A stretch of DNA of 64,000 bases, from the NCBI GenBank assembly GCA_029856145.1, contig JAHQWK010000032.1:1-64000 (forward strand). The letters run 5' to 3'. A model generated the notes under the pieces. The model searched no databases. It was not told the DNA's origin and saw only the letters and a list, made by a program, of their open reading frames with translations. The DNA is from Promethearchaeia archaeon (GTDB lineage Archaea > Asgardarchaeota > Lokiarchaeia > Sigyniarchaeales > SOKP01). Positions within the stretch are counted from its first letter, which is position 1, and each line of letters begins with the position of its first letter. Position numbers and translations under genes: made by a program. Below are positions 16,486 through 35,897 of this stretch, piece by piece.

Positions 16486-17400
16486 TTGGGAAAAAAATTG
16501 GCATCATTAAGTTCAGATCAGAAAAAAAATTCTGAAAACAATATTATTAAAGAAGAAATTAGTTTAAATTTACGTTTATGGCTGCCTTTGTTCTATGTCA
16601 TTTACTATTGTTCTTTTTTAATACCGGGTGTAATTTTCATGCTCTATATAATGTTGTTCTATTTACCTAATTTCTTAGAAGTTGGAAGTTTTATTTCTCT
16701 TTTTACTAATTTACCTTCCCTCATTGCCTCTTTAACAATACCGTTTGTAATAATTCTTTGTTATTTAATACATTTATTTATAGTAGCGTTAATTACTCGA
16801 TGGTTTTGGAGCTTCTCAGAAAAGAAATCTCCTTCTAAATCCGGGATCATTCCGAGAAATATACCTAGTAAGACTTTAAATTATTATCATTTTCGCAGTT
16901 TTATTATCAAGTATCCTAAAAACGCATTTTCTCGAGGTCCATTTCCCTGGTTATTAAAGTGGATGTTTAACTTTGTAGGGACTAATAAAATAGGAAAAGG
17001 ATCTGTCATTGAGGAACAACTTGCGGGGGATCGATTTGTAGAAGTTGGGGAAAATTCTTATATCGGGACAAATCCAGGTATCAGTTCACATTCTGTAGAT
17101 GGTGTTTTCGGTAATATTTCATTTGCTAAGATTAAAATTGGAAACAATGTTACTGCTGCGGGATTTAATTGTTTTGCCCCTGGTGTGGATATCGGAGATA
17201 ATTCGTGGTGGTTACCGATGACAGGAGCAACTAAATATAACATTTTGAAAGGTAATAACTTCTATTTCGGCACTCCCCTCAGGAAGATTTTCAAAAGAAA
17301 GGTAATGGAGTACTTGCAAATTTCAGAAGATGATTTGAAAAGGGTAGAAGAACTTAATGAAAAATTGAATTTATCAAAAAAAAGAAAAAAAAAGATGTGA
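16486..17400 (+). CDS. Membrane LbH (hexapeptide-repeat) acyltransferase-like module, type A1
   Basis: Two TM helices, SPSKSGIIPRN, IGKGSVIE..VGENSYIG..IGNNVTA repeats. Start may be TTG at 16498. Confidence 0.85.
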   Translation: MGKKLASLSSDQKKNSENNIIKEEISLNLRLWLPLFYVIYYCSFLIPGVIFMLYIMLFYLPNFLEVGSFISLFTNLPSLIASLTIPFVIILCYLIHLFIVALITRWFWSFSEKKSPSKSGIIPRNIPSKTLNYYHFRSFIIKYPKNAFSRGPFPWLLKWMFNFVGTNKIGKGSVIEEQLAGDRFVEVGENSYIGTNPGISSHSVDGVFGNISFAKIKIGNNVTAAGFNCFAPGVDIGDNSWWLPMTGATKYNILKGNNFYFGTPLRKIFKRKVMEYLQISEDDLKRVEELNEKLNLSKKRKKKM

Positions 17401-17411
17401 GAAACAACTAA

Positions 17412-18302
17412 ATGAACTCTGATACTAAAGAAGAGAAAATAAATAATAGTAAAATTGATTACACAATTGACTTTATAACTACAAGTGCAATAAGTAAAAT
17501 TGGCTATAAATTTCTTGTTTTATATCTCCCAATTTTATGGGTTTCTGGATATATGACTGTTGCTGTATTCTTCGATGTATCAAGTTATATCCCATGGTAT
17601 ATAAATATGTTTTTAATCCCTGTATGGTTATTCATTTTATATTTTATTTTCGTTTTTGGAATCACGATTTTTACAAAAGCCTTTATCTTAATAATAAATA
17701 TGCTTCATAAACCTAAAGAGGGAGTATTCAGAGCTGAAGAAGGTGATCGAGATTATGAGTTTTGGCGATTAAGAGTAGAATTGAAGAAATTAGTTTTTTG
17801 GTTTATGAATAATGGTCCTCTAACATGGATAGTAATGTGGGGCTTCAGATGGATGGGTATTAAGGTAGATTTTTCAAGTCATGCTCAAGATTCTTGGTTG
17901 GATGAGAGATTTATTGAATTCGGGCGAAATGTTACTGTAGGCCAAGGAGCTGTTGTAATGAGCTCTCAAATCGTCGGGAAATATTTGATAATCAAAAAGA
18001 TTTTTCTTGGAGATCACACAGTTGTAGGTGGTTTATCACTCATATCTCCTGGCACAATTATGGGTAAGGAATCTGTAATTGGCGCATTTTCTGCGACAAT
18101 TCCAAACCAAAAAATAGACCCGGGTTGGATTTACTTAGGGCCACATGCAGCTAGGAAATTAAAACCAAATAAATTTGCGGAACAACGTCGAGATCTAATA
18201 TATGAGAAAAATGTGGATGATGAAGTAAAATTTGAAGTTAAACAAGAAGTCAACATAGATGAAGATAAGAAAAAGTTCTTAAACAATAATAGAGAGGATT
18301 AA
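17412..18302 (+). CDS. Membrane LbH acyltransferase-like module, type B1
   Basis: IDFITTSAISK, two TM, HKPKEGVF...YEFW, FGRNVTVGQGAVV repeats. Confidence 0.85.
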   Translation: MNSDTKEEKINNSKIDYTIDFITTSAISKIGYKFLVLYLPILWVSGYMTVAVFFDVSSYIPWYINMFLIPVWLFILYFIFVFGITIFTKAFILIINMLHKPKEGVFRAEEGDRDYEFWRLRVELKKLVFWFMNNGPLTWIVMWGFRWMGIKVDFSSHAQDSWLDERFIEFGRNVTVGQGAVVMSSQIVGKYLIIKKIFLGDHTVVGGLSLISPGTIMGKESVIGAFSATIPNQKIDPGWIYLGPHAARKLKPNKFAEQRRDLIYEKNVDDEVKFEVKQEVNIDEDKKKFLNNNRED

Positions 18303-19156
18303 TGAATATGTCAGTACCTTCGAGTTTAAAAGTAGGACCAAATACGACTCTTATCTTAGCAAAGAAGAGATATGTAATCTTTTACGTCTTTTTAATTTGG
18401 ATTAGTATTTTTACAATACAGTTTGAATTTTGGTTGTTCTGGAAACTTTATGAGCCGAAATTCATTCATTTTTTACTTTTCTTACCTTTATTAGTTTTTG
18501 TTATGTATCTAACATCAATTTTAGTATCCTTAATCTTTGCTAAAATAATTTTAGTAATCATTAATCTTATTCATAAACCACGAGAAGGAGTGTTCTTAAG
18601 ACATCACTCGGATAAAGATTATAGATATTGGAGTCTTAGAAGTATTATAAAAAAATGGCCGTTTTGGCTATCACACAAATTTCCTTTTCCTTTTATGAAT
18701 AATATATGTTCTAAAATGTTTGGTATAAAAACTAACTACACCAACTCTTTATTTGAAGGATGGGTTGATACAGAATTCATTAAATTTGGAAAGAACGTTG
18801 TAGTTGGACAGGGGGCAATAGTCCAGTCATCCATTATTTTTGGAAATTTATTTATTATAAGAAAAACCATCATTGAAGACAATGTTATGATTGGTTCCCA
18901 AAGTGTTGTTATGCCTGGAACCTATATGAAAAAAAATTCTATTTTAGGAGGTCATTCAATGACCATAGTAGGTCAAAAATTAGAAGAGAATTTTATTTAT
19001 TTAGGAGCTCCAGCTAAAAAGTTTAAAAAAAATGTATTTTATGAAGATGGATTGGAAGATATTATTAAAAATCAAGGAATAGGAGATATTAAAACAGAAG
19101 CAAAATTTGAAGGATTATATACTGTACGTAAGGATAAAGAGATTATTGATGATTAG
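18302..19156 (+). CDS. Membrane LbH acyltransferase-like module, type C1
   Basis: MSVPSSLKVGP N-terminus, two TM, HKPREGVF...DYRYWSLR, FGKNVVVGQGA; stop/start overlap with B1. Confidence 0.85.
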   Translation: MNMSVPSSLKVGPNTTLILAKKRYVIFYVFLIWISIFTIQFEFWLFWKLYEPKFIHFLLFLPLLVFVMYLTSILVSLIFAKIILVIINLIHKPREGVFLRHHSDKDYRYWSLRSIIKKWPFWLSHKFPFPFMNNICSKMFGIKTNYTNSLFEGWVDTEFIKFGKNVVVGQGAIVQSSIIFGNLFIIRKTIIEDNVMIGSQSVVMPGTYMKKNSILGGHSMTIVGQKLEENFIYLGAPAKKFKKNVFYEDGLEDIIKNQGIGDIKTEAKFEGLYTVRKDKEIIDD

Positions 19157-19436
19157 AAAGACATTATTTTCTTATTGAATGTTTTTTATCCGTCCATGGC
19201 TTTGAAAAGAACAAAGGATGGGATTCATTCTCCCCAAAAAATCAACTTATTTATAAATTCAAACAAGTAGGACCTCCAATTGGATTAAAATCTATTTAAA
19301 AATATCCAGATGTGTCTATTTAATCTAGTTATAATATATGAATTTAGTTTAATAAAAACTAAAATTTGATTTGGTAAAGTGTGGCTAACTTTAAAGAATA
19401 GAATCTCATTTTTATTATTTTATTCCCACCAAATCT

Positions 19437-19913
19437 TTATATTTTATTAATTTTTTCAAGAACTTGTAAAATTTCCTCGTTTTCTGGGATATCATGCATA
19501 TTTTTTCCATAATATGCGTATTGAATTATCCCTTTCTTGTCAATTATTAATAATCCAGGCATTCGCCCAAGTTTTATCCACCTTTTTTCTTGTTTTAACA
19601 TTGTAGCTACTTTTTTTGATTCATCATAAAAGACAGCGTATTTTCTTGCATATTTTTGTTCCATTTTTTTAGCATTTTTTTCGTTATCTACTAAGATTGG
19701 ATACAAATACCCATCTAATTCTTCAAATTTTTCGATATCTCTCCTTAATCTAGCAGCATGCCATCGACAGAAAGGTCAATTGATATCTCTAAATAACACA
19801 ATTATTACATTTTTTTTATTTTCAAGATCTCTGATATTGACTGTTTCACCTCTAGAGTTTGGTAGACTAAACTCAGCGATCTTAGTACCAACTATATTGA
19901 ATTTATCTTTCAA
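19437..19913 (-). CDS. Peroxiredoxin-like (AhpC/TSA) selenoprotein with UxxC motif
   Basis: TTG start at 19913 after AAGTGAT. Reads MKDKFNIVGTKIAEFSLPNSRGETVNIRDLENKKNVIIVLFRDIN-UGA(19776..19778)-PFCRWHAARL..., continuous in frame with the 89-aa track ORF; 158 aa. Confidence 0.85.
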
Positions 19914-20030
19914 TTTGATATCACTTTTGTTTTTATTTATATTTTAAATAAAGAATAAATAAATATTCCTTAATTATATATTTCTTTAAAATTATAAATT
20001 TAAATTGAAAGTCTATACTGTGGTGAAAAA

Positions 20031-20432
20031 ATGGCTCTTGATATAAATTGGATAGCTTTTGTAGTTGTAGCATTGATATATTTTGCAATCCACTTTTTTT
20101 GGTATTTTCCTTTTGCATTCGGTAATTTATGGCTAAAGTTAGTAGGCAAAGAAAGTGAACCGAAGTCTAAAATTATTAGAGACACAATAATAATGATTCC
20201 TACTAGTTTTATAACAGTTCTTTTCATCGAGATAATGATGGATTTAACTGGTATGAATGATATTGTTTCTGCTTTATTACTTAGTTGCATGTTATGGCTC
20301 GGTTTTGTAGCAACAATTGCTATTAACCAAAATAATTTTAATGACAGAGGAATTAAGCTATTTTTATTAGAATATGGTTTTTATCTTATAGGTTTTATAA
20401 TTAGTGGAGCGATATTAGCAGTTTGGATATAA
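20031..20432 (+). CDS. DUF1761 family membrane protein
   Basis: INWIA...FFWY...FGNLW, WLGF, 4 TM. Confidence 0.75.
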   Translation: MALDINWIAFVVVALIYFAIHFFWYFPFAFGNLWLKLVGKESEPKSKIIRDTIIMIPTSFITVLFIEIMMDLTGMNDIVSALLLSCMLWLGFVATIAINQNNFNDRGIKLFLLEYGFYLIGFIISGAILAVWI

Positions 20433-20558
20433 TCTACTAATTTATTTATTTTTTATTAATTAAACTCATTTTTTTTTTCAAATTTTAAAGAATAGTATGA
20501 AATAAATTTATAATTTTGAGGGATATGAGTTAAAATCTAATTTTGTATATATTTTCTT

Positions 20559-21398
20559 ATGAACTCTATTGAAAAATCAGAAGATGGTTGGCTAATACCA
20601 AAATCTCCAATTACATTTGATTATCTAAAAAGATTCAATCGAAATATGGGTATTTTACATTTAGTGCAGGGTTTACTAATGGTCCTTTTTGGCTTTTTAC
20701 CTCAACTAGCTTTTTCCAGAGACCTTTACACTTTTTACCTAAAATTTGAACTTATTGGTCCAGATTATATTATCTCACCAAATCCTACGGTACTTTTTGT
20801 CTTTAGTGCTTTAGGGGCATTTGTTGGATCCTTTTTATTGATGTCTGCTATTGCCCATCTATTAATTGCTTACCCACTTAATAAAAGTTATGTCAAGAAT
20901 TTAAAAAGAGGAATAAATAAGATACGTTGGTTTGAGTACGCCTTTTCAAGTTCAGTGATGATTTTCTTAATCGCTATTTTTTTTGGCGTGTGGGATTTCT
21001 GGGCATTGTTTATGATTTTTGTCTTAAATGCTCTGATGAATATGTTTGGTTTAATGATGGAATCATATAATGTATATACGAGAGAAAAAAATGAGAAGGT
21101 TAAATGGGGTCCATATTATTTAGGTGTTATTGCCGGAGCCGTTCCTTGGATTGTAATTACTGCTTACTTTATAAGTACTGAAACAATTGGAGGAGAAGTA
21201 CCACTATTTGTCTATTTGATTTACGGAATAGAACTATTTTTCTTTAATACATTCGCTATCAACATGATATTGCAATATAAAGGAGTAGGAAAGTGGAAAG
21301 ATTATCTCTACGGTGAAAGAGTGTATCAACTTTTAAGTCTTGTATCTAAAACATTTCTAGCATGGCTTGTATTTGCAGGAGTATTTAGTCCAACATAA
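20559..21398 (+). CDS. heR: Heliorhodopsin
   Basis: 7 TM; N..MGILHLVQ, SAIAH, RWFEYAFSSS, FFNTFAINMILQY, YLYGERVYQLLSLVSK (retinal-binding Lys). Confidence 0.93.
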   Translation: MNSIEKSEDGWLIPKSPITFDYLKRFNRNMGILHLVQGLLMVLFGFLPQLAFSRDLYTFYLKFELIGPDYIISPNPTVLFVFSALGAFVGSFLLMSAIAHLLIAYPLNKSYVKNLKRGINKIRWFEYAFSSSVMIFLIAIFFGVWDFWALFMIFVLNALMNMFGLMMESYNVYTREKNEKVKWGPYYLGVIAGAVPWIVITAYFISTETIGGEVPLFVYLIYGIELFFFNTFAINMILQYKGVGKWKDYLYGERVYQLLSLVSKTFLAWLVFAGVFSPT

Positions 21399-21439
21399 AA
21401 ATTAAGTTAAAAAAAAATTTTTTTATTTTTTGAAGGAAT

Positions 21440-23080
21440 TTAAGCTTCTAATACATAAAGTGGCCATTTTTTCAAAACTCCTTTAGGATTTTTCCCGCTT
21501 CTAACTTTCTGTAACATTTCAGAGCGTGTCGCTAAGAAGTCTATTGGATTATTCTTAATTAGTTCTATTTCTATTTCATTATTTAAAATAGCTTCTTTAA
21601 ACTTTTCATTTCTAATACAGTTAAGTAAAATTTTGCTATAATTCTTTAAATTAGAGCAATTTTTCCTATCGTTTGAATAAAGAAATAATTTCAAACTATT
21701 ATTTACAGATTCTTTATAGATTAATAATAATAGAGAATCAATATCTAAGACACATTTGTCTTTTAAACAATTTAATAGAATTCGCGGATTTAAAATTTCG
21801 AAATTAGGAAAAGTAAAGTAATCACCAGCATAAACTTTATAATTCAATTGCAATCCTATCTCTTTCGATAAGTTTATTGGATATTTTAATTGAAAACTTG
21901 AACGTAAAATTTTTCCATCAATTTGAGGAAGACCTTCCTGATTTTTAATAGAAATAACGTCACCCAAATCTATATTAATTAAAACTCCTGAGTTATTAAG
22001 TCGTGAAACATAAAGCCTACCAAATTTATTTTTGGTCCTTGAAATTAACTCTTTTTTTCCTTTATAATCTATTACTGGAAGAGTTAGAGGAAAGATATGC
22101 ATTCTATTTAAGCGTGAAATTTCAAAATCTCCCATGTTTATGCTTGCAGCAAATGGGCCAATTTCAGAAGCTACATAAAGATTTGTAAATTTTTCTTTAC
22201 CCTCTTCCCATTTCATAAATTTACGAATTAATTCCCAATCTGATTTTGATAATGAACTTATACTAAATACCAAAGTTGCTTTCGATATTTTTTCAGATAA
22301 TTCTTTTTGAATTTCATATGAAACACTATCTAATCCATTCTTTTCAATTTTTAATAGAAAGTCTTCAAGTTTTGGATTTTGAGTTTTATTTATTAAATAA
22401 AGTGATCTTTTTATCCCATCTTGGAGTCTAGTAATATCTGCCCATCCTAAAATTGTTATTGCTGGTGCAGAAATAACTGAGATATTATCCATTGTTAAAA
22501 TTTTAGATATTATATCTAAGTTTCTTGAATTTTTATATTCATAAAACAGATATGCTTTTGGTTTAATAACGGATAGCATGATTCTTTGAGAAAATTCCGA
22601 GGAGTAAAGTGAAATATATTTCTTATCTCCTTGTTTTTGAATCCCATCAAATTTAAGCCTTGAAGGAACAAAAATAATAGCAGAGGAATTTAAATCTAAC
22701 CCACTCGATTCAAAAATTGCTTGCATACCAGGAGCCCATTGTCTTTTGACAATGTCTTTTGCCATATGAAACCATTTTAGTTCTGATAATTTACTATTTG
22801 TAGTCCCTGAAGTATGACAAAAAATTAATGCGTCAGAAGCTTTATCACTATTGAGAAAATCATCTATATCTATTGAGAAACTTCTAGAATCAGTTGTTTC
22901 AGATTTTATCCTATTGAAAAGATCTTCAATAGATGATAGCTCTGAAAGCTTTAATGACAATTCTTCATATTCCTCTCGAGAATCTATTTCAAGCCAATGT
23001 TTCCAATTTATCCTTTCTATATCTGAAAAAGATTTATTGAAGTTATTTTGAACTTTTTCATCAAAGTCATAAGATACCAA
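21440..23080 (-). CDS. GH3-like / ANL-superfamily adenylate-forming enzyme
   Basis: HTSGTT (P-loop), YVASEIG (YxxSE), IDLGDVI (GD motif). Confidence 0.65.
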   Translation of the reverse strand: MVSYDFDEKVQNNFNKSFSDIERINWKHWLEIDSREEYEELSLKLSELSSIEDLFNRIKSETTDSRSFSIDIDDFLNSDKASDALIFCHTSGTTNSKLSELKWFHMAKDIVKRQWAPGMQAIFESSGLDLNSSAIIFVPSRLKFDGIQKQGDKKYISLYSSEFSQRIMLSVIKPKAYLFYEYKNSRNLDIISKILTMDNISVISAPAITILGWADITRLQDGIKRSLYLINKTQNPKLEDFLLKIEKNGLDSVSYEIQKELSEKISKATLVFSISSLSKSDWELIRKFMKWEEGKEKFTNLYVASEIGPFAASINMGDFEISRLNRMHIFPLTLPVIDYKGKKELISRTKNKFGRLYVSRLNNSGVLINIDLGDVISIKNQEGLPQIDGKILRSSFQLKYPINLSKEIGLQLNYKVYAGDYFTFPNFEILNPRILLNCLKDKCVLDIDSLLLLIYKESVNNSLKLFLYSNDRKNCSNLKNYSKILLNCIRNEKFKEAILNNEIEIELIKNNPIDFLATRSEMLQKVRSGKNPKGVLKKWPLYVLEA

Positions 23081-23208
23081 AATATTCTCCTACACTGTAA
23101 GTTCTATTTTAATATATTGATGGTTAAAAATAACGATATTATCAAAATCTAATTAGAATAAATAAGGAAAAAATGAATTATATTGTTTTTCGAAAATATT
23201 TATTTGTT

Positions 23209-23748
23209 TTAAATATAATGTAAAATACCATATAACCCAGACTCAGGATCTTGGAATATAGGCAAGTGTGGTGGCAAATAGGTAAATATTATTAAAGAAA
23301 GTCCGAATCCTAAAATAATTATCCATGACATAATACTTATCCATCTTGGTAATTCATTTAATGTCAATATTTTATAGCTAACTACTTGACCAATAATTAC
23401 ACCAAAATAGAAACTTAAAATGTCTATTATAAGAAGTTCTGTCCCAAGAATAGCTGTATATGAGTAAAAAACAATTAAAATGGTAGCAATACTTATTATA
23501 GCAGCAAGACTTTTTGCAATGATAATATTATTTGCTTTTTCTTTTATAAACTTATATTCGATTAAAGAAAATATTACAAGCGGCCAATAGGGGAGTTTTA
23601 GATGTTCCCACACACTTTCATTAACTGCAGTAATTGCTCCAATGGGAGGCCAAGAAAAAAGCCATTCAAATACAAAGTGGAATAAAGAACCAACGATAAT
23701 GATAAAAATCATGCCCAAAATTTCCCATTGTAATAGTTTATTTTGCAT
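23209..23748 (-). CDS. Conserved membrane protein (DUF6512-like)
   Basis: GSLFHF..EW, AVNESVWEHLK, FTY.PP...F.DP. Confidence 0.75.
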   Translation of the reverse strand: MQNKLLQWEILGMIFIIIVGSLFHFVFEWLFSWPPIGAITAVNESVWEHLKLPYWPLVIFSLIEYKFIKEKANNIIIAKSLAAIISIATILIVFYSYTAILGTELLIIDILSFYFGVIIGQVVSYKILTLNELPRWISIMSWIIILGFGLSLIIFTYLPPHLPIFQDPESGLYGILHYI

Positions 23749-23988
23749 CTTTTCACCTTTAAATCTTTAAAAATGTAATCTAATTAATTTTGGTTAAATT
23801 GAAAATATAAAAAAGTGCATATTTCTGTTTTATATAAAAGATTATATTAAAAAATAGTTCTGCTTTGATTCTATAAATTAATTCTAAACTGTGACTTATC
23901 TTTATTAGGACTTATATTAATTTCTTTATTATTTCTAGATTGTAATTTGCTAATTTTAAATGTTAATAAAATACTAGTTTGATTTGAA

Positions 23989-24063
23989 ATGAAAGCAGCG
24001 GTATATGATGGAAGTAAAATAAATATAAAAGATATACTAATCCCACAAATAAAAAATAACTAA
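23989..24063 (+). pseudogene. 5' remnant of a zinc-dependent (MDR) alcohol dehydrogenase gene
   Basis: MKAAVYDGSKINIKDILIPQIKNN* resembles the typical MDR N-terminus (MKAAV...IxDxPxPxI). Confidence 0.5.
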
Positions 24064-24118
24064 ATGAGCGGTTTGTGCAAACTGTATTTTGATTGAGTAA
24101 AACCGCCTTTTTTAATAC

Positions 24119-24775
24119 TTATAGGGATTCTTCGACAACTTCTTTACTTAACATTTCAAAAAGTTTGTCAATGTTTTCTTCTCTTTTCGCTTGGGACTCC
24201 CCAAGAGCAATTTTTAAATTAACTTCACTTTGCTTTTCATCGACCATCACTCTATACCTTATATTATTACGGACTCTCCTTAATCTAAAGATATTTTTAA
24301 TTGGAATCTCATATCCATAAAAAGCTATATTTGGGATATATCTATTATAAGGTCCTTTGAGCTTACCCTGTGCAATCATTCTAGCATTAGTAATGAAAAT
24401 ACTTGCAGAATTTAAAAAAATGGGTTCAGTCATTTTTCTATTTTGTGTTATGTTCCCATTAAATTCAAGAAGTATTTGTTCTCCCTCAGTTAAATAATAT
24501 TTTTCAAGAATATATCTTTCCATTTCCTTTAGCTTCTCATCTCCAATAAGTTTCCCCATTTTATTCCTGAAAGATTTATAGAGTTTTTTCATAAAAAATT
24601 CGGGTTTTATTTTGAATGTTTCCCCGACAATGTTAAAAAAATCAGAATCGGAAAGCTGCTGAAATTCTGCTTTTCTTCGTAAGTCCAATAAAGTATTTAA
24701 AATTTTACTAGAAACTGGTTTTGGTCTTTGAAGTTCTTCTTTAAGAATATCCAATATTTGACTACTTTCACTCAT
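24119..24775 (-). CDS. Hypothetical protein with GRAM/PH-like C-terminal domain
   Basis: LTEGEQILLEF...IFITNARMI...EIPIKNI pattern. Confidence 0.55.
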   Translation of the reverse strand: MSESSQILDILKEELQRPKPVSSKILNTLLDLRRKAEFQQLSDSDFFNIVGETFKIKPEFFMKKLYKSFRNKMGKLIGDEKLKEMERYILEKYYLTEGEQILLEFNGNITQNRKMTEPIFLNSASIFITNARMIAQGKLKGPYNRYIPNIAFYGYEIPIKNIFRLRRVRNNIRYRVMVDEKQSEVNLKIALGESQAKREENIDKLFEMLSKEVVEESL

Positions 24776-24990: not shown

Positions 24991-25923
24991 GTGATAAAAT
25001 TGGAATCAAATAGTCCAGATCAAAAAGAAAATACTGAAAATAACATTATTAAAGAAGAAATTAAGTTACAGTTGCATATATGGCTACCTACATTCTATGT
25101 TATTTACTACTGTTCTTTTCTAATTCCGGGAATAATCTTCATGATGTATATGATGTTATTTTATTTGCCATTCTTCTTAGAGGAAGCAAACTTTATTTCT
25201 CTTTTTACTAATTTGCCTTCTCTCATTGCCTCTTTAACAATACCATTTGTAATAATAATATGTTACCTAATACATATATTTATTATAGCTCTAATAACTC
25301 GGTTGATTTGGAGATTCTCAGAAAAAAAATCTCCTTCTAAATCCGGAATCATCCCAAGAAATATCCCCAGTTTAACGTTAAATTATTATCACTTTCGTAG
25401 TTTTATTATAAAATATCCCAAAAACGTGTTTTCCCGAGGCCCATTTCCTTGGTTATTAAAATGGATGTATAATTTCGTCGGAACAAATAAAATAGGAAAA
25501 GGATCTGTCATTGAGGAGCAACTAGCTGGGGATAGGTTTGTAGAAATTGGAGAAAATACTTATATAGGAACAAATCCAGGTATCAGTTCACATGCAGTGG
25601 AAGGAACTTTTGGTAATATTTCATTTGCAAAGATAAAAATTAGAGATAATGTTACTGCTGCTGGATTTAATTGTTTTGGCCCGGGACTGGATACAGGAAA
25701 TAACTCATGGTGGTTACCTATGACTGGAGCAACGAAATACAACATTTTAAAAGGTAATAACTTCTATTTCGGCACTCCCCTCAGGAAGATTTTCAAAAGA
25801 AAGGTAATGGAGTACTTACAAATTTCAGAAGAGGATTTAAAAAGAGCAGAGGATTTTAAAAAAAAAATTGAATTAAAAAATCAAAAGAAAAAGAAGAAGA
25901 GGGAGATTCAAATAAATGAATGA
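24991..25923 (+). CDS. Membrane LbH module, type A2
   Basis: Close paralog of 16486..17400. Confidence 0.85.
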   Translation: MIKLESNSPDQKENTENNIIKEEIKLQLHIWLPTFYVIYYCSFLIPGIIFMMYMMLFYLPFFLEEANFISLFTNLPSLIASLTIPFVIIICYLIHIFIIALITRLIWRFSEKKSPSKSGIIPRNIPSLTLNYYHFRSFIIKYPKNVFSRGPFPWLLKWMYNFVGTNKIGKGSVIEEQLAGDRFVEIGENTYIGTNPGISSHAVEGTFGNISFAKIKIRDNVTAAGFNCFGPGLDTGNNSWWLPMTGATKYNILKGNNFYFGTPLRKIFKRKVMEYLQISEEDLKRAEDFKKKIELKNQKKKKKREIQINE

Positions 25924-26833
25924 AAATCTAGAAGAGAAAAAAAATGACGCAACTAAAGTCGATTATACTATTGATTTTGTAACAACTAGTGCGATTAGCA
26001 AAATTGGCTATAAATTTATTGGTTTTTATATCCCAATCTTATGGATTTCTGGATATATGGCGATTGCAGTATTTTTTGATGTCTCTAAGGGAATTTTTGA
26101 ACTAACTGGTCGATTTACCAGTGTGATAATCACCATGTTTCTTATACCAATATGGTTATTTGTTCTATATTTTATTTTTGTTTTTGGGATTGCTATGTTT
26201 ACAAAAGCATTCCTTCTAATAATAAACATGCTCCATAAGCCTAAAGAAGGAGTTTTCAGAGCAGAAGAAGGTGATCAAGATTATGAGTTTTGGAGACTAC
26301 GAGTAGAATTAAAGAAATTAGTTTTCTGGTTTATGAATAATGGGCCTTTGCCTTGGATTATAATGTGGGGTTTTAGATGGATGGATATTCATGTAGACTT
26401 TTCAAGTCATATGCAGGATGCATGGTCAGATGGTGGATTCATTGAATTCGGCCGAAATGTCACTGTAGGGCAAGGAGCAGTTGTAATGAGTTCAATGATT
26501 GTAGGAAAATATTTGATCATCAAAAAGGTTGTTCTAGGAGATCATACTGTCGTAGGTGGGCTATCACAGATCTCTCCGGGTACAATAATGGGTAAAGAAT
26601 CTGTGCTTGGTGCTTTTTCTACAACAATTCCCAGTCAATTTTTAGAACCAGGATGGATTTACTTAGGCCCTCAATTTGCAAGAAAACTAAAACCAAATAA
26701 ATATGCAGAGCAACGTAGAGATGTTATTATTGAGAAACATGTGGATGATGAAATAAAATATGAAGTTAAACAAGAAATTAATATAGATGAAGCTAAGAAA
26801 AAGCTCGTAAATAATAATAAGGAGGAAGAATGA
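25916..26833 (+). CDS. Membrane LbH module, type B2
   Basis: Close paralog of 17412..18302. Confidence 0.85.
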   Translation: MNENLEEKKNDATKVDYTIDFVTTSAISKIGYKFIGFYIPILWISGYMAIAVFFDVSKGIFELTGRFTSVIITMFLIPIWLFVLYFIFVFGIAMFTKAFLLIINMLHKPKEGVFRAEEGDQDYEFWRLRVELKKLVFWFMNNGPLPWIIMWGFRWMDIHVDFSSHMQDAWSDGGFIEFGRNVTVGQGAVVMSSMIVGKYLIIKKVVLGDHTVVGGLSQISPGTIMGKESVLGAFSTTIPSQFLEPGWIYLGPQFARKLKPNKYAEQRRDVIIEKHVDDEIKYEVKQEINIDEAKKKLVNNNKEEE

Positions 26834-26836
26834 ACC

Positions 26837-27688: not shown

Positions 27689-27735
27689 TATAAATCTCTT
27701 TTAAAATTCTATTAAAATCTTAAAGTTGACTAAAT

Positions 27736-28536
27736 ATGAAAGTTGGATATATTCAAACATCTCCAATTTTTGGAGAAAAAAGGCAAAATTTTAAGAAAAT
27801 TGAAAAATTGATTACAAAATTAAAGGCAGATTTAATTGTATTACCAGAACTATTCGCTACAGGTTATGCTTTTGTCTCTAAAGAAGAAGCGGTCCCTTTA
27901 GCTGAAGATTTCAACGGTGAAACGGCTCAATTTTTAATAAAGATGGCCAAAATTACTGGTGCAATAATAATTGGAGGATTTATCGAAAAAGAAGAAGAGA
28001 AAATATACAATTCCGCAATGATTGTTTCAAGTGAAGGTGTTATTGGATCATATCGGAAGATCCATCTATATTTTAAAGAAAAGCTCTGGTTTTTTCCTGG
28101 AGATAAACCTTTAAAGGTATACGATATTGATGGAGTCAAAATTGGGATTATGATTTGCTTTGATTGGATTTTCCCGGAAACAACTCGTACTCTTGCTCTT
28201 CTTGGTGCAGACATCATTGCACATCCAACTAATTTAGTATTACCATATTGTCAGAAAGCAATGGTAACACGATGTTTAGAAAATCGAGTTTTTGCTGTAA
28301 CTGCAAACAGAATTGGTGAAGAAAAACGAGGTTCTGATCATTTTACGTTTACAGGAAAAAGTCAAATAACTTCTTATAATGGTGAAATTTTATCTTCAGC
28401 TCCAAGAGATGAAATTTATGTAGATTTTATAGATATAGATATTCAAAAAGCAAGAGACAAAAATCTAAATGAGTATAATAATTTATTTGAAGATAGACAG
28501 GTAGAATTTTATTATAATACTGATAAACCAAAGTAA
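27736..28536 (+). CDS. Nitrilase-family carbon-nitrogen hydrolase (amidase)
   Basis: E-K-C triad: LPELF, YRKIHL, MICFDW. Confidence 0.92.
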   Translation: MKVGYIQTSPIFGEKRQNFKKIEKLITKLKADLIVLPELFATGYAFVSKEEAVPLAEDFNGETAQFLIKMAKITGAIIIGGFIEKEEEKIYNSAMIVSSEGVIGSYRKIHLYFKEKLWFFPGDKPLKVYDIDGVKIGIMICFDWIFPETTRTLALLGADIIAHPTNLVLPYCQKAMVTRCLENRVFAVTANRIGEEKRGSDHFTFTGKSQITSYNGEILSSAPRDEIYVDFIDIDIQKARDKNLNEYNNLFEDRQVEFYYNTDKPK

Positions 28537-28753
28537 TTTCATGAAGTGCATTGTAAAAGTACCAATATAGATAATCCCATCAAGTCCATTATGTATTTTT
28601 CTAAGTATTATTAGAACAAATTATTAATGATAGAAGGACAAATTTTTACTTAGTTTAGTCAGGTTTCATTCAATTAAAGCCATGATCATATCAAAATCTT
28701 ACTATTTAATAGAACTTAAAAATTATAAATGATTTCGATTTGCATGGATTAAT

Positions 28754-30511
28754 ATGGTAAACTCCGAAACACCTTTAATTGAACACGATTCAGAAAAAAA
28801 AGTTATTAGAGAAGATATTAAATTCCAATATTTTTGGTATCTTGTTGTCTTATTTACGATTTACTTAATTTCATATTTAATTCCTGCTATTTTATTCATG
28901 ATTTACTTTCTATTTTATTTTATCCCTTCCTTTTTAGAAACTACAAATTTCCTATCAATTTTTATTAATTTAAAACCTCTTTTGGCATTAATATCCATGC
29001 CTTTGGTTATTATCGTATGTTATCTAATCCGCTTATTTCTGATTGCATTAGTTGCGCGCTTTTTTTGGAGATTGTCAGAAAAAAAATCCCCTTCTAAACC
29101 AGGCACTATACCAAGAAATTTCCCAAGTAAAACGCTAAATTTTTATCACATAAGATCTTTCATAATAAAATATCCCAAAACCGCTTTCACTAAAGGAATT
29201 TTTCCGTGGTTGTTACCATGGCTATATAATTTTGTAACCACGAGCCAGATTCAGAAAGGGACGACAATGGAAGAATCTTGTGTGAATGATAAATTTTTAG
29301 AAATTGGGAAAAATTGCTACATCGGTGTTAATTCAGTATTTACTAGTCATTTAATTGATGGTATATTTGGAAATATTGCTTATTTTAAAATTAAAGTAGG
29401 TGATAATGTTACCGCTGCGGCAAAAAACCTAATTGGTCCCGGTTCTGAAATTAAAGATAATTCCTACTTACTCCCTTTAGCTTCCACACCAAAACATAGC
29501 ATATTAAAAGGCAATAGCTATTATTTTTCAGCAGGAGCAAAACCCCTCCAGAGAATATCTAAAAGAAAAATTAAGAGCTATTTGAAAATTGACCCTGAAA
29601 CATTAGAACAAATAAAAGACGTTAAAGATGCAATTGGTTCTTCACCAGTTCAAACACAAGAAACGAATGAGGAGAGAGAAAAAGATTTATCGATCAATTT
29701 CGTCACAAGCAGCGCAATAAGTAGAGTTAATCTAAAATTTTTAATTTTGTATATCCCTATCTTTTGGCTTTCTGGGATGTTAGACGCTATAATCTTTTAT
29801 ACATATACTTATTATGTTCAAAACGGGATTTTAATGGTCTTTTTTTTACCAGCGATAATGTTTTTTATGTGGTTTGTATTTATTTTCAGCTGTTTAATTT
29901 TTAGTAAACTGTTTCTAATCTTAATAAACTTGACTCATAAGCCAAAAGAGGGAATCTTTAAAGCTGAAAAGGGCGATAATGATTTTGAATTTTGGTGCTT
30001 ACGGATCGAATTAAAGAAAATTGTGTTATGGCTTGTACGAAATTGGCCTCTTCCTTGGATGGACATATTAGTTTTCAAATGGTTTGGAATAAAAATAAAT
30101 TTTTCATGTGGCTTGTGGGATTCATGGTGTGATGCAGAGTTCATTCATTTCGGACGTAAAGTTTTAATAGGGCAAGGAGCAACGGTCATGTCTTCTATGG
30201 TTATTGGTAAATATTTAATTATCAAAAAAGTGATATTTGATGATTATTCTCTTATCGGTGGTCATTCTATTATCTCTCCAGGAACAATAGTAGGAAAAGA
30301 GACATTAGTTGGTGCTTTATCATATTCTTTATATAATCAAGTATTAGAGCCCGGATGGGTATATTTTGGAATGCCCATACAAAAATTGAAGAAGAACAAA
30401 TATGCCGAGGAACGACGGAACAAAATAATGAAAAGAGATGTTGATGAAGAAAAGAAATTTGAAATTGATCATGACATCAATATTGAAGAAGATAAGAAAG
30501 AGCTTGCTTAA
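28754..30511 (+). CDS. Fused A+B membrane LbH protein (AB3)
   Basis: N-half aligns with type A; C-half, from INFVTSSAISR, aligns with type B. Confidence 0.85.
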   Translation: MVNSETPLIEHDSEKKVIREDIKFQYFWYLVVLFTIYLISYLIPAILFMIYFLFYFIPSFLETTNFLSIFINLKPLLALISMPLVIIVCYLIRLFLIALVARFFWRLSEKKSPSKPGTIPRNFPSKTLNFYHIRSFIIKYPKTAFTKGIFPWLLPWLYNFVTTSQIQKGTTMEESCVNDKFLEIGKNCYIGVNSVFTSHLIDGIFGNIAYFKIKVGDNVTAAAKNLIGPGSEIKDNSYLLPLASTPKHSILKGNSYYFSAGAKPLQRISKRKIKSYLKIDPETLEQIKDVKDAIGSSPVQTQETNEEREKDLSINFVTSSAISRVNLKFLILYIPIFWLSGMLDAIIFYTYTYYVQNGILMVFFLPAIMFFMWFVFIFSCLIFSKLFLILINLTHKPKEGIFKAEKGDNDFEFWCLRIELKKIVLWLVRNWPLPWMDILVFKWFGIKINFSCGLWDSWCDAEFIHFGRKVLIGQGATVMSSMVIGKYLIIKKVIFDDYSLIGGHSIISPGTIVGKETLVGALSYSLYNQVLEPGWVYFGMPIQKLKKNKYAEERRNKIMKRDVDEEKKFEIDHDINIEEDKKELA

Positions 30512-30622
30512 CTTAAATTTCTGAAAAATTCGAATTAGAAAACATATATTTTTAAAACATTGTGTTTTTTAGAAAAAATATCTTAATTACTAAATATAAA
30601 TCAAAATTGAAAATTTAATGCT

Positions 30623-32452
30623 ATGACAAAAACGGAGCAACAATCAACTGAAAATGTTTCAGAGGATCAAGTTCCCCAAGAAGAAATTAAATTTCCATAT
30701 TTTTCGTTTTTACTTATATTTTTTATTATTTATTTGGCTTCATTGATTGTACCAGCACTAATATTTTTAGTTTATATATTCCTCTATTTTTTACCTCAAT
30801 TTTTAGAAATTACAAATTTTTTTGCTCTTTTTACAGAAATTAAGTCCCTAATTGCATTAATAACTATGCCTCTTGTTCTCATTTGTTGTTATCTTCTCCG
30901 GTTATTTTTCATAGGTCTAATTACACGTGGATTTTGGAGATCTAGTGAAAAAAAATTACCTAGTAAAAATGGGATAATACCAAGAAATGTTCCAAGTAAG
31001 GCATTGAATTATTATCAGAAGAGAAGCTTTATGATCAAATATGGAAAAAATTCCTTTATAAAAGGGGCCTTTCCTTGGCTTAGTAATTGGTTTTTCAACT
31101 TTGTGGGGTCAAATCAAATTGGAAAAGGTACAACCTTTGAGGAAAGTTCTGGTAATGACAAATTCGCAATTGTAGGTAAAAATTGTTATTTTGGTGTTAA
31201 CTCAATGTTAGCTAGCCATTTGGTAGATGGAACTTTTGGAAATATTAATTACTTTCAAATAAAAGTAGGAGATAATGTTACAACCGCCGGAACAAACCTG
31301 ATTGCACCGGGATCAGAAGTACATGATAATTCTTATTTATTACCTATAGCTTCGACCCCAAAACATAGTGTATTAAAAGGAAATAATTTTTATTGGGGGT
31401 TACCACTCAGGAAAATATTCAGAAAGAAGATAATGAAATATTTAGGGGTAACTCCAAAAGATTTAGAGATGAATGATAATGTTGAAGGTTACGCTGATAA
31501 AAAATTATTGGAAAAATTGAAAGCAGAGAAAGAATTGAGACAATCTGAGATTATCCCCAAAGAGGAACAAATAAAAGTAAATTTAGGAGAGGATGAAATT
31601 GACATAAATAATTTAACAGAAAAAAAATTAGCAATTGATTTCACGACAAGTAGCGCGATTTCAAGAGTTAATATAAAATTCCTAATCTTATATATCCCTA
31701 TTTTTTGGCTTTCTGGGATGTTAGACTCTATAATTTTTTATACATATACTTATTATGTTCAAAACGGGATTTTAATGGCTTTTTTTCTGCCAACTTTGGT
31801 AATCATTATGTGGTTTGTATTTATATTAGGTTGTTTCTTTTTCAGCAAGTTATTTTTAGTTTTAATAAATTTGATTCACAAACCTAAAGAAGGTATTTTT
31901 AAAGCAGAAATTGGTGACACTGATTTTGAGTTTTGGTGTTTACGGACAGAAGTGAAAAAAATTGTGATATGGCTTATACGAAATTGGCCTCTTCCTTGGA
32001 TGGACATACTAGCTTTTAAATGGTTTGGAATAAGAATGAGCTTATCTAGCTCTTTATATGATTCTTGGTGCGATGGTGAATTTATATCATTTGGGCGAAG
32101 GGTATTAGTTGGTCAAGGAGCCACTATCATGTCTTCGATGGTTGTTGGTAAATACTTGATTATAAAGAATGTTATATGTGGTGATTATTCTCTTATCGGT
32201 GGACACACCACTATAGCGCCAGGGACTGTTATAGGCGAAGATACTTTTGTGAGTGCAATTTCAAATACAATATATAACCAGATTCTTGAGCCCGGGTGGC
32301 TCTATCTTGGAATACCCGTGAAAAAACTCAAGGAAAATAAATACAGGAAAGAGAGAAGAGATATAATCATGAAAAGAGACGTAGACGAAGAAGAAAAATT
32401 CGAGATTGAACATGAAATTAACATTGAAGACGACAAAAAAGATCTTACCTAG
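30623..32452 (+). CDS. Fused A+B membrane LbH protein (AB4)
   Basis: Same two-module architecture as AB3. Confidence 0.85.
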   Translation: MTKTEQQSTENVSEDQVPQEEIKFPYFSFLLIFFIIYLASLIVPALIFLVYIFLYFLPQFLEITNFFALFTEIKSLIALITMPLVLICCYLLRLFFIGLITRGFWRSSEKKLPSKNGIIPRNVPSKALNYYQKRSFMIKYGKNSFIKGAFPWLSNWFFNFVGSNQIGKGTTFEESSGNDKFAIVGKNCYFGVNSMLASHLVDGTFGNINYFQIKVGDNVTTAGTNLIAPGSEVHDNSYLLPIASTPKHSVLKGNNFYWGLPLRKIFRKKIMKYLGVTPKDLEMNDNVEGYADKKLLEKLKAEKELRQSEIIPKEEQIKVNLGEDEIDINNLTEKKLAIDFTTSSAISRVNIKFLILYIPIFWLSGMLDSIIFYTYTYYVQNGILMAFFLPTLVIIMWFVFILGCFFFSKLFLVLINLIHKPKEGIFKAEIGDTDFEFWCLRTEVKKIVIWLIRNWPLPWMDILAFKWFGIRMSLSSSLYDSWCDGEFISFGRRVLVGQGATIMSSMVVGKYLIIKNVICGDYSLIGGHTTIAPGTVIGEDTFVSAISNTIYNQILEPGWLYLGIPVKKLKENKYRKERRDIIMKRDVDEEEKFEIEHEINIEDDKKDLT

Positions 32453-32464
32453 GACATCTCAACT

Positions 32465-32878
32465 TTAATCAATTTTCAAGGTAAATTGCTGTTCTAAAAA
32501 CCTTTTCAAATTCGAACATGTAATTTTTAGACTTTGTTTTGTATTATAAAATTGCTCCTTTCTAGGGCAATCATCATCAAGTAAGCATTTTTTTTTGTTA
32601 ATATCATAGATTAATGGATAAAATCGGCATCCTTGAGGTCGAAATTCATAAATTTTACATTTCTTTGCAGAGTAGTTTAAAAAAACGCAATGACCATCAA
32701 TATTTTTTAGTTGAAATTGCTCATTTTTATTTTTAAAAGCAATATCTTGTTTCTTTATTTTATTCGGATAACTTTTTACTATTAAGTCAATGTCTTGTTG
32801 AGAAAGTATCATTTCTGTTTCTAAACAACACTCTCCGCAATTTTCACATATGTTTTTCAATTTCTGCCTACGAATCAT
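32465..32878 (-). CDS. YkgJ-family cysteine-cluster protein
   Basis: CENCGECC...CVFL...CKIYEFRPQGCRFYP. Confidence 0.9.
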   Translation of the reverse strand: MIRRQKLKNICENCGECCLETEMILSQQDIDLIVKSYPNKIKKQDIAFKNKNEQFQLKNIDGHCVFLNYSAKKCKIYEFRPQGCRFYPLIYDINKKKCLLDDDCPRKEQFYNTKQSLKITCSNLKRFLEQQFTLKID

Positions 32879-32974
32879 AAATTTAAAAGGAAAAAAAAAT
32901 AACTATTAAAGTAAATAAGTATCAATTGCTTTTTAATAGAAATAAATAAGTTGATCTAGGATTGACTAGTCAAA

Positions 32975-34834
32975 ATGAGTGAAGAATCTGAAGAAAGTGA
33001 TCTTCCAAATAATAATGAAGTTATAAAAGAAGAGGTCAGTCTTCAGTACCATTTATATATCTTTATTTTTGCATTAATATTTTATGGTTCATGGGTAATT
33101 CCCGGGATTTGCTTTTTTTGGTATTTGCTTCAAGTATTCCTACCATATGTATTAGATGTTACTAATTTTTTCCTTATCTTTATTCAATTGGAGTCATTAA
33201 TCGCATTTCTCTCAATGCCGTTAGTTCTTATTGGATGTTATTTGTTGCGTTTATTCTTTTTAGGACTATCTACTAAGATTTTTTGGAAGATATCTGAAAA
33301 AACCTCTCCATCAAAAGCGGGAGTGATTCCACGAAATATTCGTAGTAGAGCGGCAAATTACTATCATTTAAGAGGTTTTATGATTAAATACGGAAAAAAT
33401 ACCTTTACAAAGGGAGTTTTTACTTGGCTCAGTAATTGGTTTTTTAATTTTATAGGAGCATCCAAAATAGGGAAAGGTACGACGTTGGAGGAATCTGTAG
33501 TTAATGATAAATTTATTGAAATTGGGAAGAACTGTTATTTGGGGGTAAATTCTGCTTTAGGGACTCATGTAGTGGAGGGAATCTTTGGTAATATCTCATA
33601 CTTCAAAGTTAAAGTTGGCGATAACGTTACCGGGGCAACAACAAATTTAATTGGGCCTGGATCAGAAATACGCGATAATTCATTTCTGCTTCCTTTAGCT
33701 TGCGCGACAAAACATAGTATAGCAGGAAAACCTCCCTTAATTAATTACTATTGGGGCATGCCATTAAGACGAATATTCAGAAGAAAGATAATGCAATATT
33801 TGGGTGTATCAGCAAAAGACTTAGAGAAAAATGAAAATATTCAAGGTTATGCTGATAAAAAATTACTGAAAAAATTAAAAGCCGAAGAAATCATTGATAA
33901 CACTCACAATAAGCAACATGTAGTTAGTAAATTACCTGAGGATAAAATAAACGTAAATGCTTTAACAGCAAAAGATTTAGAAGTGGATTTTACTACGAGT
34001 TCTGCGATCAGTAGAGTAAATATAAAGGTTTTAGCTGTTTATATACCAATATTTTGGCTAGCAGGACTAGTAGTTTCGATCTTTTGGTACTGGTATCTTT
34101 CTGATGAGAATTGGGCTATGATTTTAACCTTTCTCCCCCTTGCTTTATTTGGTTCAATTTATTTTTTTATTTTTGCTTGTATGCTCTTTAGTAAATTATT
34201 CTTAATTTTTGTAAATTTAATTCATAAACCCAAGGAGGGTGTCTTTAAAGCCGAGATTGGTGATAAGGATTTTGAATTCTGGATGTTTAGAACTGAATTA
34301 AAGAAAATGATTTTATGGTTTATGCGATATTCACCATTTCCATGGTTAGATGTACTAGCTTTTAAATTAATTGGGGTTGATATGGATACATCTAGCCATC
34401 TTAATGATACTTGGTGTGATGGTGAATTCATTAAATTTGGCAGAAAGAATTTAATCGGTCAAGGAGCCAATATTATGTCGAGTACAGTAATAGGTAAGTA
34501 TTTGATCATTAAAAAAGTAATATTTGATGACTATGTAATGGTTGGAGCTCATACAACTATAGGGCCTGGAACAATAATAGGTAAAGAGACAATCGTTGGT
34601 GCGATTTCCACCACCACATTTAATCAAGTTCTTGAGCCTGGGTGGATTTACACAGGAATTCCTGTCACAAAATTCAAACCAAACAAATATGCTGCATCTC
34701 GTAGAGAAATCCTTGTAAAAAAAGATGTAGATGAAGCAAGAAAATATGAAGTCACACATGAAGTAAACATAGATGAGGATAAGAAAGAATTAATTAAAAC
34801 AGAAAATAATAATAATGTTCATGATTCTTCTTGA
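32975..34834 (+). CDS. Fused A+B membrane LbH protein (AB5)
   Basis: Same two-module architecture as AB3. Confidence 0.85.
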   Translation: MSEESEESDLPNNNEVIKEEVSLQYHLYIFIFALIFYGSWVIPGICFFWYLLQVFLPYVLDVTNFFLIFIQLESLIAFLSMPLVLIGCYLLRLFFLGLSTKIFWKISEKTSPSKAGVIPRNIRSRAANYYHLRGFMIKYGKNTFTKGVFTWLSNWFFNFIGASKIGKGTTLEESVVNDKFIEIGKNCYLGVNSALGTHVVEGIFGNISYFKVKVGDNVTGATTNLIGPGSEIRDNSFLLPLACATKHSIAGKPPLINYYWGMPLRRIFRRKIMQYLGVSAKDLEKNENIQGYADKKLLKKLKAEEIIDNTHNKQHVVSKLPEDKINVNALTAKDLEVDFTTSSAISRVNIKVLAVYIPIFWLAGLVVSIFWYWYLSDENWAMILTFLPLALFGSIYFFIFACMLFSKLFLIFVNLIHKPKEGVFKAEIGDKDFEFWMFRTELKKMILWFMRYSPFPWLDVLAFKLIGVDMDTSSHLNDTWCDGEFIKFGRKNLIGQGANIMSSTVIGKYLIIKKVIFDDYVMVGAHTTIGPGTIIGKETIVGAISTTTFNQVLEPGWIYTGIPVTKFKPNKYAASRREILVKKDVDEARKYEVTHEVNIDEDKKELIKTENNNNVHDSS

Positions 34835-34916
34835 TAATATAATTAAAAATTTGAAAATTTTATAGAACAATTTAAAAAAGAGAAGGAGAAATGTAAAAAA
34901 ATAAGAGTGATAAAAG

Positions 34917-35897
34917 ATGTCGGTTCCAAATACAATGCGTGTAGAGTAAGATGCGATTCGAATCTTGCACACTAGGCCTTTCACGCCCTCGGTTTTGGCA
35001 AAAAAAAGATATTTAATTTTTTATATATTTCTGATATGGGCAAGTATAATCCCTTTACTCCTAGAATTGTGGGTGTATTGGCGGTGGTTATGGAATTATG
35101 ATAGGCCTGTCCATTTTTATACATTCCTTCCTCTTTTAGGTGTACTGATGTATGTAACAATTGTCTTTTCAGGAATAATATTTGCTAAAATACTTTTGAT
35201 TTTTGTTAATGCAATTCACAAGCCTCGAGAAGGTGTATTTTTGAGAATTCCAGAAGATCGAGATTATCGATATTGGAGCCTAAGAAATACTATAAAGCGT
35301 TGGCCGGTTTGGCTTGCTCACAGATTTCCATTTCCAGGAATTATGGATAATGTTTGTTTTAAAATGTTTGGAGTAAAAACTAAAATAAGTAATTCCTTAT
35401 TTGAAGGATGGGTAGATACAGAATTCATAGATTTTGGTAAAGATGTAGTAGTTGGGCAAGGAGCAATTGTTCAATCTGCTGTTATTATTGGTAATTTGTT
35501 AATAATCCGAAAAACAATAATAGAAGATAATGTAAGGATAGGTTCACATGCTATAGTTATGCCTGGTACTCATATAGGGCAAAATTGCATTCTCGCAGCA
35601 AATTCAGTAACAACAGTTGGACAAGAGTTAGAAAGAGGTTGGATTTATGTAGGGATTCCAGCAAAACAATTCAAAAAGAACTATTTCTTTGAAGATGGAT
35701 TGGAAGATAAGATTGGCCATGTTGAAGACGTTGAAAGTTTGAGAGAAAAATACGAAGATATCTATATTAGACGAAAAGATGAGCTTAAACGTAAAGATCG
35801 TAGAGAAATTAAGAAAGAAAAGAAAGAAGAAGAAAAGAAGAGATTTGATTATGAGGCCGAGGAATGGGAAGATATTGATGACGGTTTCAGTATATAA
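34917..35897 (+). CDS. Membrane LbH module, type C3, intron-containing: join(34917..34944,34975..35897), 316 aa
   Basis: ATG at 34917 with RBS GAGTGAT (34905..34911). The spliced N-terminus MSVPNTMRVGPFTPSVLAKKRY aligns without gaps to MSVPSSLKVGPNTSLILAKKRY of C2. Confidence 0.88.
34945..34974 (+). other. 30-nt archaeal bulge-helix-bulge (BHB) intron in an mRNA
   Basis: Central helix GUGU/ACAC, 3-nt bulges AGA and UAG, intron stem GUAAGAU/AUCUUGC; contains in-frame TAA (34947..34949). Confidence 0.88.

Follow-up and report, generated by a model that had tools for sequence, protein, structure and literature searches.

Organization of the gene array

The 64,000-nucleotide (nt) stretch of the Promethearchaeia archaeon genome analyzed here (assembly GCA_029856145.1, contig JAHQWK010000032.1, positions 1 to 64,000; G+C content about 30%), hereafter the window, contains an array of ten co-oriented genes on the + strand between positions 16486 and 35897 (Table 1). 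When the three long fusion proteins are cut at the start of the second repeat, these genes encode 13 modules of three classes: five A, five B and three C. Each module consists of a transmembrane (TM) hairpin, a linker and a left-handed beta-helix (LbH), and the profile comparisons described below indicate that the modules are homologous, over their full length, to the repeat units of the terminal polymerization domain of the Pls/PosA synthetases. The fused terminal domain of Pls/PosA is already known; for Pls-type modules encoded as separate genes, in threes, in an archaeon, the literature searches yielded no description.

An all-against-all BLASTP comparison of the 13 modules yields 46-84% identity within a class, 31-38% between B and C, and approximately 20-25% between A and either B or C, with every comparison significant (E-values of 1e-5 to 1e-18 for A against B or C). 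Thus, all 13 modules are homologous and form three classes. Hydropathy analysis places two hydrophobic TM segments within the first ~110 residues of each module, so that the module proteins are not soluble. Summed over the 13 modules, lysine and arginine occur 29 times in the N-terminal flank and 51 times in the C-terminal flank of the hairpin versus 10 times in the loop; given this enrichment, both termini and the LbH are predicted to be cytoplasmic. The Pfam Hexapep profile matches the C-terminal halves of the modules, and the 13-module alignment reveals a conserved Pro..Gly pair after the second TM segment (HKPKEG in B and C, SPSKxG in A), an invariant arginine (R107), a PFPW motif, an F..G motif and the glycines of the LbH. 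A preliminary description of this DNA had recognized ten co-oriented genes with five A, five B and three C modules, each with a TM hairpin, a linker and hexapeptide repeats, and arranged as two triads of separate A, B and C genes followed by three A+B fusions and a single C gene. The counts are exact according to the open reading frame (ORF) listing and BLASTP; hydropathy, alignment and Hexapep matches agree on the module architecture, and the gene coordinates on the arrangement. In the window, the gene order is A, B, C without exception, and the intergenic spacing inside the triads ranges from -8 to 11 nt.

The last gene of the array, C3, probably starts at the ATG at 34917. Four orthologs begin with MSVPNTMRVGPF, at an ATG that matches this position, and in the window a 30-nt in-frame insert that contains a TAA codon (approximately 34944-34973) separates this ATG from the remaining gene. 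Deletion of the insert gives back the sequence ..RVGPF.. exactly. The minimum-energy RNA fold of the insert is not better than those of shuffled sequences (z -0.9).

Table 1. Module genes of the window and of the rest of the host genome (G000), and neighboring genes in the window
Feature	Location	Strand	Description
A1	16486..17400	+	A-type module: two TM helices, linker, LbH; invariant His
B1	17412..18302	+	His-less module
C1	18302..19156	+	His-less module; start shares 1 nt with the B1 stop
A2	24991..25923	+	A-type module with His
B2	25916..26833	+	His-less module; 8-nt overlap with A2
C2	26837..27688	+	His-less module
AB3	28754..30511	+	Fusion of A-type (His) and B-type modules; junction at ~residue 300
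AB4	30623..32452	+	A+B fusion; AlphaFold-modeled; His199 invariant in 70 homologs
AB5	32975..34834	+	A+B fusion
C3	34917..35897	+	His-less module; ORF as listed 34965-35897 (TTG start)
2+1 triad	contig C18 (L001 6937-9283)		Order BC-like, A-like, BC-like
Pair	contig C2 (L002 5717-7324)		E1 (His) and E2 (no His), followed by a metallophosphoesterase
Singleton	contig C22 (L003 5890-6690)		His-bearing; follows a major facilitator superfamily (MFS) transporter
DUF1295 protein	15529..16356	+	Membrane protein (steroid-reductase / ICMT-like)
546-aa protein	21440..23080	-	Divergent, putative adenylate-forming enzyme (PaaK/CapK/GH3-like)
Carbon-nitrogen hydrolase	27736..28536	+	Nitrilase superfamily; 47 nt 3' of C2
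CxxCxxCC protein	32465..32878	-	YkgJ-type

Relationship to the Pls/PosA terminal domain

The NCBIfam profile TIGR02353 (Pls/PosA NRPS_term_dom; NRPS, nonribosomal peptide synthetase) is the best or near-best family for the single genes of the window. The window genes score 22-45 bits, far below the membership cut-off of 423.1; a three-module Asgard fusion protein, P0241, reaches 54 bits, and true members 580-615 bits. Given that weak matches to this profile also occur in 13 of the 14 control genomes, these low scores alone prove nothing. A search of 1.84 billion representative proteins with a 281-position profile built from 19 modules (the 13 from the window and six encoded elsewhere in the genome) retrieves 152 proteins at E<1e-30, among which the next to follow the Asgard family are Pls/PosA synthetases, with E-values of about 1e-31 to 1e-33. 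Three of the 152 that were checked (P0377, P0384 and P0385; 1296-1340 amino acids, aa) each contain three matched stretches; in P0384, these cover profile positions 34-258, 24-246 and 7-247 of 281, i.e., the TM hairpin, the linker and the LbH. With 590-615 bits on TIGR02353 and an amino acid adenylation domain, these three proteins are genuine Pls/PosA synthetases. An hhalign comparison of the Asgard modules with an alignment of 15 Pls modules covers 191 columns with the probability of 99.7% (E = 1e-25); for the part that precedes the LbH (TM plus linker) taken alone, the E-value is 7e-5 versus 0.13 for a column-reversed control. Both the profile search, with three stretches per Pls, and hhalign bear out the specific similarity to the Pls C domains on which the preliminary description had staked its reading. 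As judged from these alignments, the modules are full-module homologs of the C1-C3 repeat units of Pls/PosA, through a link that is real but remote, and are best described as a remote sister family, not as members of TIGR02353.

The two groups share a common unit composed of a TM hairpin, a linker with K-P-x-x-G and aromatic residues that contains two helices, and an LbH of approximately five turns. In both, three units are modeled as one body, and one unit in three carries a histidine in the column equivalent to His115 of the galactoside acetyltransferase LacA. The Asgard units, however, are encoded by separate genes or two-module fusions (13 units in the window, 19 in the genome), so that three tandem TM-pair plus C domains in one chain are not found among the one- or two-module genes of the window, whereas in Pls the units are fused to adenylation and carrier (T) domains. 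Pfam and family scans detect neither an adenylation nor a T domain in the ten genes; the modules are indeed detached from an adenylation-carrier didomain, as previously proposed. Three-module proteins that stand alone, without this didomain, include P0386, the Elusimicrobiota proteins P0357 and P0383, a Propionivibrio protein (locus L042) and P0335, which is fused to a short-chain dehydrogenase/reductase (SDR). These bacterial proteins resemble the Asgard set in the possession of three TM-hairpin plus LbH modules, the lack of the didomain and, mostly, a single His-bearing module, but they are single chains, closer to TIGR02353 (113-580 bits), and none is split or expanded.

Distribution of the putative catalytic histidine

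The A modules contain the motif S-[ST]-H-x-V-[DE]-G, and its histidine shows no variation among 70 AB fusions or among 18 A-like modules that represent several taxonomic families. The best PDB match of the A-like profile is Escherichia coli LacA (1kqa, E = 9e-8), and this histidine counts onto His115, the catalytic base of LacA. When all modules are aligned to one hidden Markov model with hmmalign, the His115 column contains histidine in A1-A5 and serine or alanine in every B and C; among all classes, histidine is present in A, D2, E1 and F, and not in B, C, D1, D3 and E2. Of the features typical of the MAT/GAT-like branch of the LbH acyltransferase superfamily, the hexapeptide LbH fold is found in the modules (Hexapep, AlphaFold, VIA-align) and the His115 equivalent in the five A modules, not in B or C.

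A single His-bearing module recurs beyond the window. The four three-module Asgard fusions have the histidine in module 2 only, as do four of the five bacterial stand-alone three-module proteins, and in the Pls/PosA-type proteins P0377, P0384, P0385, P0381 and P0386 it is present only in domain C3 (QTHLFED). All three modules carry it in the chytrid protein P0366 and in the long NRPSs P0379 and P0380. The His-bearing unit is the first (A) in the Asgard array and the last (C3) in Pls. Given one His-bearing module in three, we propose that in most lineages one module in three is catalytic, with one active site per pseudo-trimer. Pls would then possess a single active site, at the histidine of domain C3, which is a candidate catalytic residue for the Pls/PosA enzymes; in the literature found, no defined catalytic residue has been proposed for this terminal domain.

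Evidence for joint action of three modules

Fusions of the modules are common in the relatives. Two-module AB fusions of ~600 residues account for 227 proteins in Loki-type genomes, and three-module single chains are represented in Asgard archaea by P0241 (Promethearchaeota, 797 aa), P0243, P0402 and P0439. These four proteins are fused orthologs of the 2+1 triad on contig C18 of the host genome: P0241 is 46-52% identical, module by module, to the two-module and one-module genes of that triad. The AlphaFold model of P0241 was obtained with an alignment of 37 sequences, from which D3-type single modules were left out because their alignment fell on an incorrect repeat of the triple fusion, and has a mean pLDDT (predicted local distance difference test) of 82.8 and a pTM (predicted template modeling score) of 0.85. 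In the model, each module comprises two long TM helices, a strand, two helices and an LbH, and the pTM of 0.85 over 797 residues implies that the three modules are placed as one body. The natural 2+1 and triple fusions, along with this confident single-body model, suggest that in the Asgard relatives three modules work together as a unit; the fusions and the His-less partners argue for hetero-assemblies.

In a published AlphaFold model of the PosA terminal domain, the six TM helices are bent, the three LbHs, of five turns each, pack in the manner of a sugar-nucleotide acyltransferase trimer, and every TM pair is connected to its LbH through a strand and two helices (PMC10522769). The same succession of elements is seen in the models of AB4 and P0241. 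All three C domains are reportedly required in Pls (PMC4668381, citing Kito 2013). Structure comparisons started with the AB4 model (Foldseek) and the P0241 model (VIA-align) return single-LbH matches only and are uninformative on the trimer. For the soluble part of the module, the nearest structural matches are MAT/GAT-type acetyltransferases, and the resemblance extends to their N-terminal helices (VIA-align to 3ect and 3srt: Z 12.9, root mean square deviation 2.8 Å, 145 residues). LacA (1kqa), MAT (3srt) and VCA0836 (3ect) share with this part an N-terminal helical segment followed by an LbH, and the A-module histidine aligns with His115 of LacA; unlike the Asgard modules, these enzymes lack a TM hairpin and His-less partner subunits and form soluble homotrimers in which the three active sites are identical. 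PDB sequence searches with the window protein C3, AB4, an A module and a true stand-alone Pls-type domain identify generic LbH proteins only; the 2026 copy of the PDB contains no solved structure of the Pls terminal domain, and literature searches yielded no cryo-electron microscopy structure of Pls.

Phyletic distribution and evolution

In addition to the 13 modules in the window, the host genome encodes six more on three other contigs, for a total of 19 (Table 1); the pair on contig C2 and the singleton on contig C22 have orthologs in sister families. Genomes of the same genus encode 8-17 modules, and those of other families of the order 2-7. Among the sampled genomes of the phylum, 45 of 121 possess modules, including all 20 from the host's taxonomic family; modules are missing from many other Asgard families. 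No paper that describes this family turned up in the literature searches. The A-B-C and AB+C orders and the operon structure are kept across the host's taxonomic family, so that the conservation in other genomes expected in the preliminary description is observed, whereas its claim that the order is always A-B-C holds for the window and this family and breaks down at the triad on contig C18.

In a quick maximum-likelihood tree, B, C and two of the C18 modules form one well-supported His-less clade, which in the sister families is represented by a single gene per corresponding locus, located just after an A-like gene. The presence of a single BC-like gene beside an A-like gene suggests that the ancestral unit at this locus was a pair. 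The tree and gene order are best compatible with an A-like plus BC-like ancestral pair to which the third partner was apparently added by duplication, not with a copy of C1-C2-C3. The BC-like proteins of two sister-family genomes have an extra C-terminal extension of ~150 residues (L015 2684-3988 and L018 2790-4058, both on the - strand).

Functional interpretation

The homology of the modules, their architecture, the histidine pattern, the fusions in relatives and the synteny are observed directly, and from these we favor, with moderate confidence, the explanation that the ten genes encode subunits of membrane pseudo-threefold LbH acyltransferase complexes that are remote, split and stand-alone relatives of the Pls/PosA terminal polymerization domain. 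Under this hypothesis, the TM hairpin of each module would reside in the membrane, with the MAT/GAT-like helical linker and the LbH on the cytoplasmic face, and one A, one B and one C subunit of the window (or AB plus C) would assemble such that their LbHs form a classical LbH trimer on top of a bundle of six helices. With the putative general-base histidine present only in A, each complex would have one active site, at the interface between A and its neighbor, and B and C would have no catalytic role and would serve to complete both the trimer and the membrane bundle. Given that no carrier domain is found in the genome, the donor would most likely be a coenzyme A (CoA) thioester or another soluble activated acid, acyl or aminoacyl, possibly produced by the PaaK/GH3-like ligase encoded nearby. 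The acyl group would be passed to an amine or hydroxyl acceptor at, or crossing, the membrane, with membrane-coupled release. That the A-B sets represent five specificity variants is a conjecture, and so are the products proposed for them.

The evidence on the carrier comes from searches for the PP-binding domain (PF00550) and for the ACPS-family phosphopantetheinyl transferase (PF01648), which find neither in the 97%-complete host genome; the same searches are positive for both in most control genomes. These results make a carrier-tethered (thiotemplate) mechanism appear unlikely and argue against a thiotemplate polymerase of the Pls type.

The donor could be supplied by the 546-aa protein encoded between the two triads. 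This protein has no Pfam or PDB sequence match; its ESM Atlas features group it with GH3/AMP-binding clusters (0.96), and its Atlas model shows a TM-score of about 0.6 to PaaK-, LuxE- and CapK-type ligases. Thus, it looks like a divergent adenylate-forming enzyme and is a candidate for donor activation. Its gene is found near LbH genes only within the host's taxonomic family. As an obligate partner of the modules, the ligase was rejected given that no copy was found in three of the four module-bearing sister-family genomes.

Several observations weigh against the acyltransferase-complex explanation. The similarity of the modules to Pls outside the LbH is weak (probability of 62%), and class-to-class hhalign comparisons show no correspondence of A, B and C to C1, C2 and C3, each class matching C1 best. 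The proposed equivalence of A-B-C to C1-C2-C3 therefore stands with respect to the homology of the repeat units and the joint action of three modules indicated in relatives, and fails as a one-to-one match. The AlphaFold model of AB4 alone is moderate (pLDDT 66, pTM 0.59), although a comparison with the P0241 scores carries little weight because the alignments differ. The window contains five A-B sets but three C genes, and the modules of five sister-family genomes are organized in pairs and singletons, with no triads, so that the stoichiometry is not fixed at 1:1:1. The A-module histidine is a putative general base, assigned through its alignment with LacA and from the LacA literature. Finally, the ligase was not found in three of the module-bearing sister-family genomes mentioned above, the fourth has its copy on another contig, and among 80 bacterial and archaeal loci no second case of a ligase next to a three-module protein was found. 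The sole example is a metagenome-assembled genome of Propionivibrio (L042 1627-8995), where an MMPL transporter, a stand-alone AMP-binding (FAAL/DIP2-like) enzyme and the 781-aa three-module TM-LbH protein are encoded in a row.

An alternative is that the locus encodes a complete split Pls, in which the 546-aa ligase adenylates an amino acid, the A, B and C subunits polymerize it iteratively and extrude the polyamide, and the carbon-nitrogen hydrolase trims the product or makes the monomer. The only characterized whole-module relatives are indeed homopoly-amino acid synthetases (PMC10522769, PMC4668381), and an ANL-fold enzyme and an amidase-family enzyme are both encoded in the conserved neighborhood. 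Nevertheless, we consider this version doubtful: neither a T domain nor a phosphopantetheinyl transferase was found in the genome, the ligase resembles PaaK, CapK and GH3 and not the adenylation domains of NRPSs, no copy of it was detected in three module-bearing sister-family genomes, and the TIGR02353 scores are far under the cut-off.

It appears quite improbable that the proteins are ordinary membrane-tethered acetyl- or acyltransferases, i.e., homotrimers that use acetyl-CoA to O- or N-acylate a lipid head group or a lipid-linked or surface glycan, with the array resulting from expansion of paralogs. This possibility draws on the best PDB sequence and fold matches, which are sugar O-/N-acetyltransferases, on a model for heptaprenylglyceryl-phosphate O-acetyltransferase that scores similarly to TIGR02353, on the DUF1295 lipid-enzyme-like gene upstream of the array and on the existence of His-bearing singletons (class F). 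However, conservation of B and C is high despite the lack of the catalytic histidine, and neither is ever encoded apart from an A; different modules are repeatedly found fused in twos or threes, and the homology extends over the full module of Pls/PosA, not of soluble transferases. A non-catalytic membrane scaffold or channel with structural LbH trimers and no acyl transfer, similar to the gamma-carbonic-anhydrase-like subunits of complex I, which are among the sequence matches, would account for the two modules of every three that lack histidine but is highly implausible given that almost every set, even in distant lineages, has one module in which the histidine and its loop do not vary and that no metal-binding histidine triad is seen in the alignments.

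The Asgard family offers small, separable subunits of the Pls-type module, for a domain that has no solved structure, and a testable rule, namely one His-bearing module per three, which in Pls is C3. Because the module exists without carrier-protein machinery, a wider chemistry can be expected from it. The large, lineage-specific expansion of membrane enzymes in Asgard archaea is also of interest: these organisms are the closest prokaryotic relatives of eukaryotes, and the product of the enzymes could influence their cell surface or lipids. A more far-reaching scenario, to which we assign a low probability, is that Loki-type Asgard archaea possess a carrier-independent, combinatorial Pls-like polymerase, in which interchangeable catalytic A-B pairs share C subunits and yield several different membrane-extruded polyamides, acylated surface compounds or acylated lipids; in that case, the bacterial Pls/PosA domain would have branched off, in fused form, from an older hetero-trimeric membrane LbH family with one active site per trimer.

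Genomic neighborhood

The module genes belong to a block near the ribonucleotide reductase gene that is kept across the genus and the taxonomic family, with shifting gene orders. This block includes DUF1295, A-B-C, often the carbon-nitrogen hydrolase, the 546-aa protein, DUF6512, a zinc alcohol dehydrogenase, the CxxCxxCC protein, the AB fusions and C. All five same-genus loci and two of the ten loci from other genera have the carbon-nitrogen hydrolase gene after the A-B-C triad, which is compatible with a functional link to the triad. For two other genes, the context indicates association only: in several genomes of the taxonomic family, the DUF1295 gene immediately precedes A-B-C, and the CxxCxxCC gene is found among the AB fusions in seven of the ten loci from other genera as well as in same-genus loci. 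Between the first triad and the ligase gene, the window also contains a DUF1761 gene and a gene for heliorhodopsin (NCBIfam HeR, 304 bits; 20031-21398), both of which recur nearby in some relatives.

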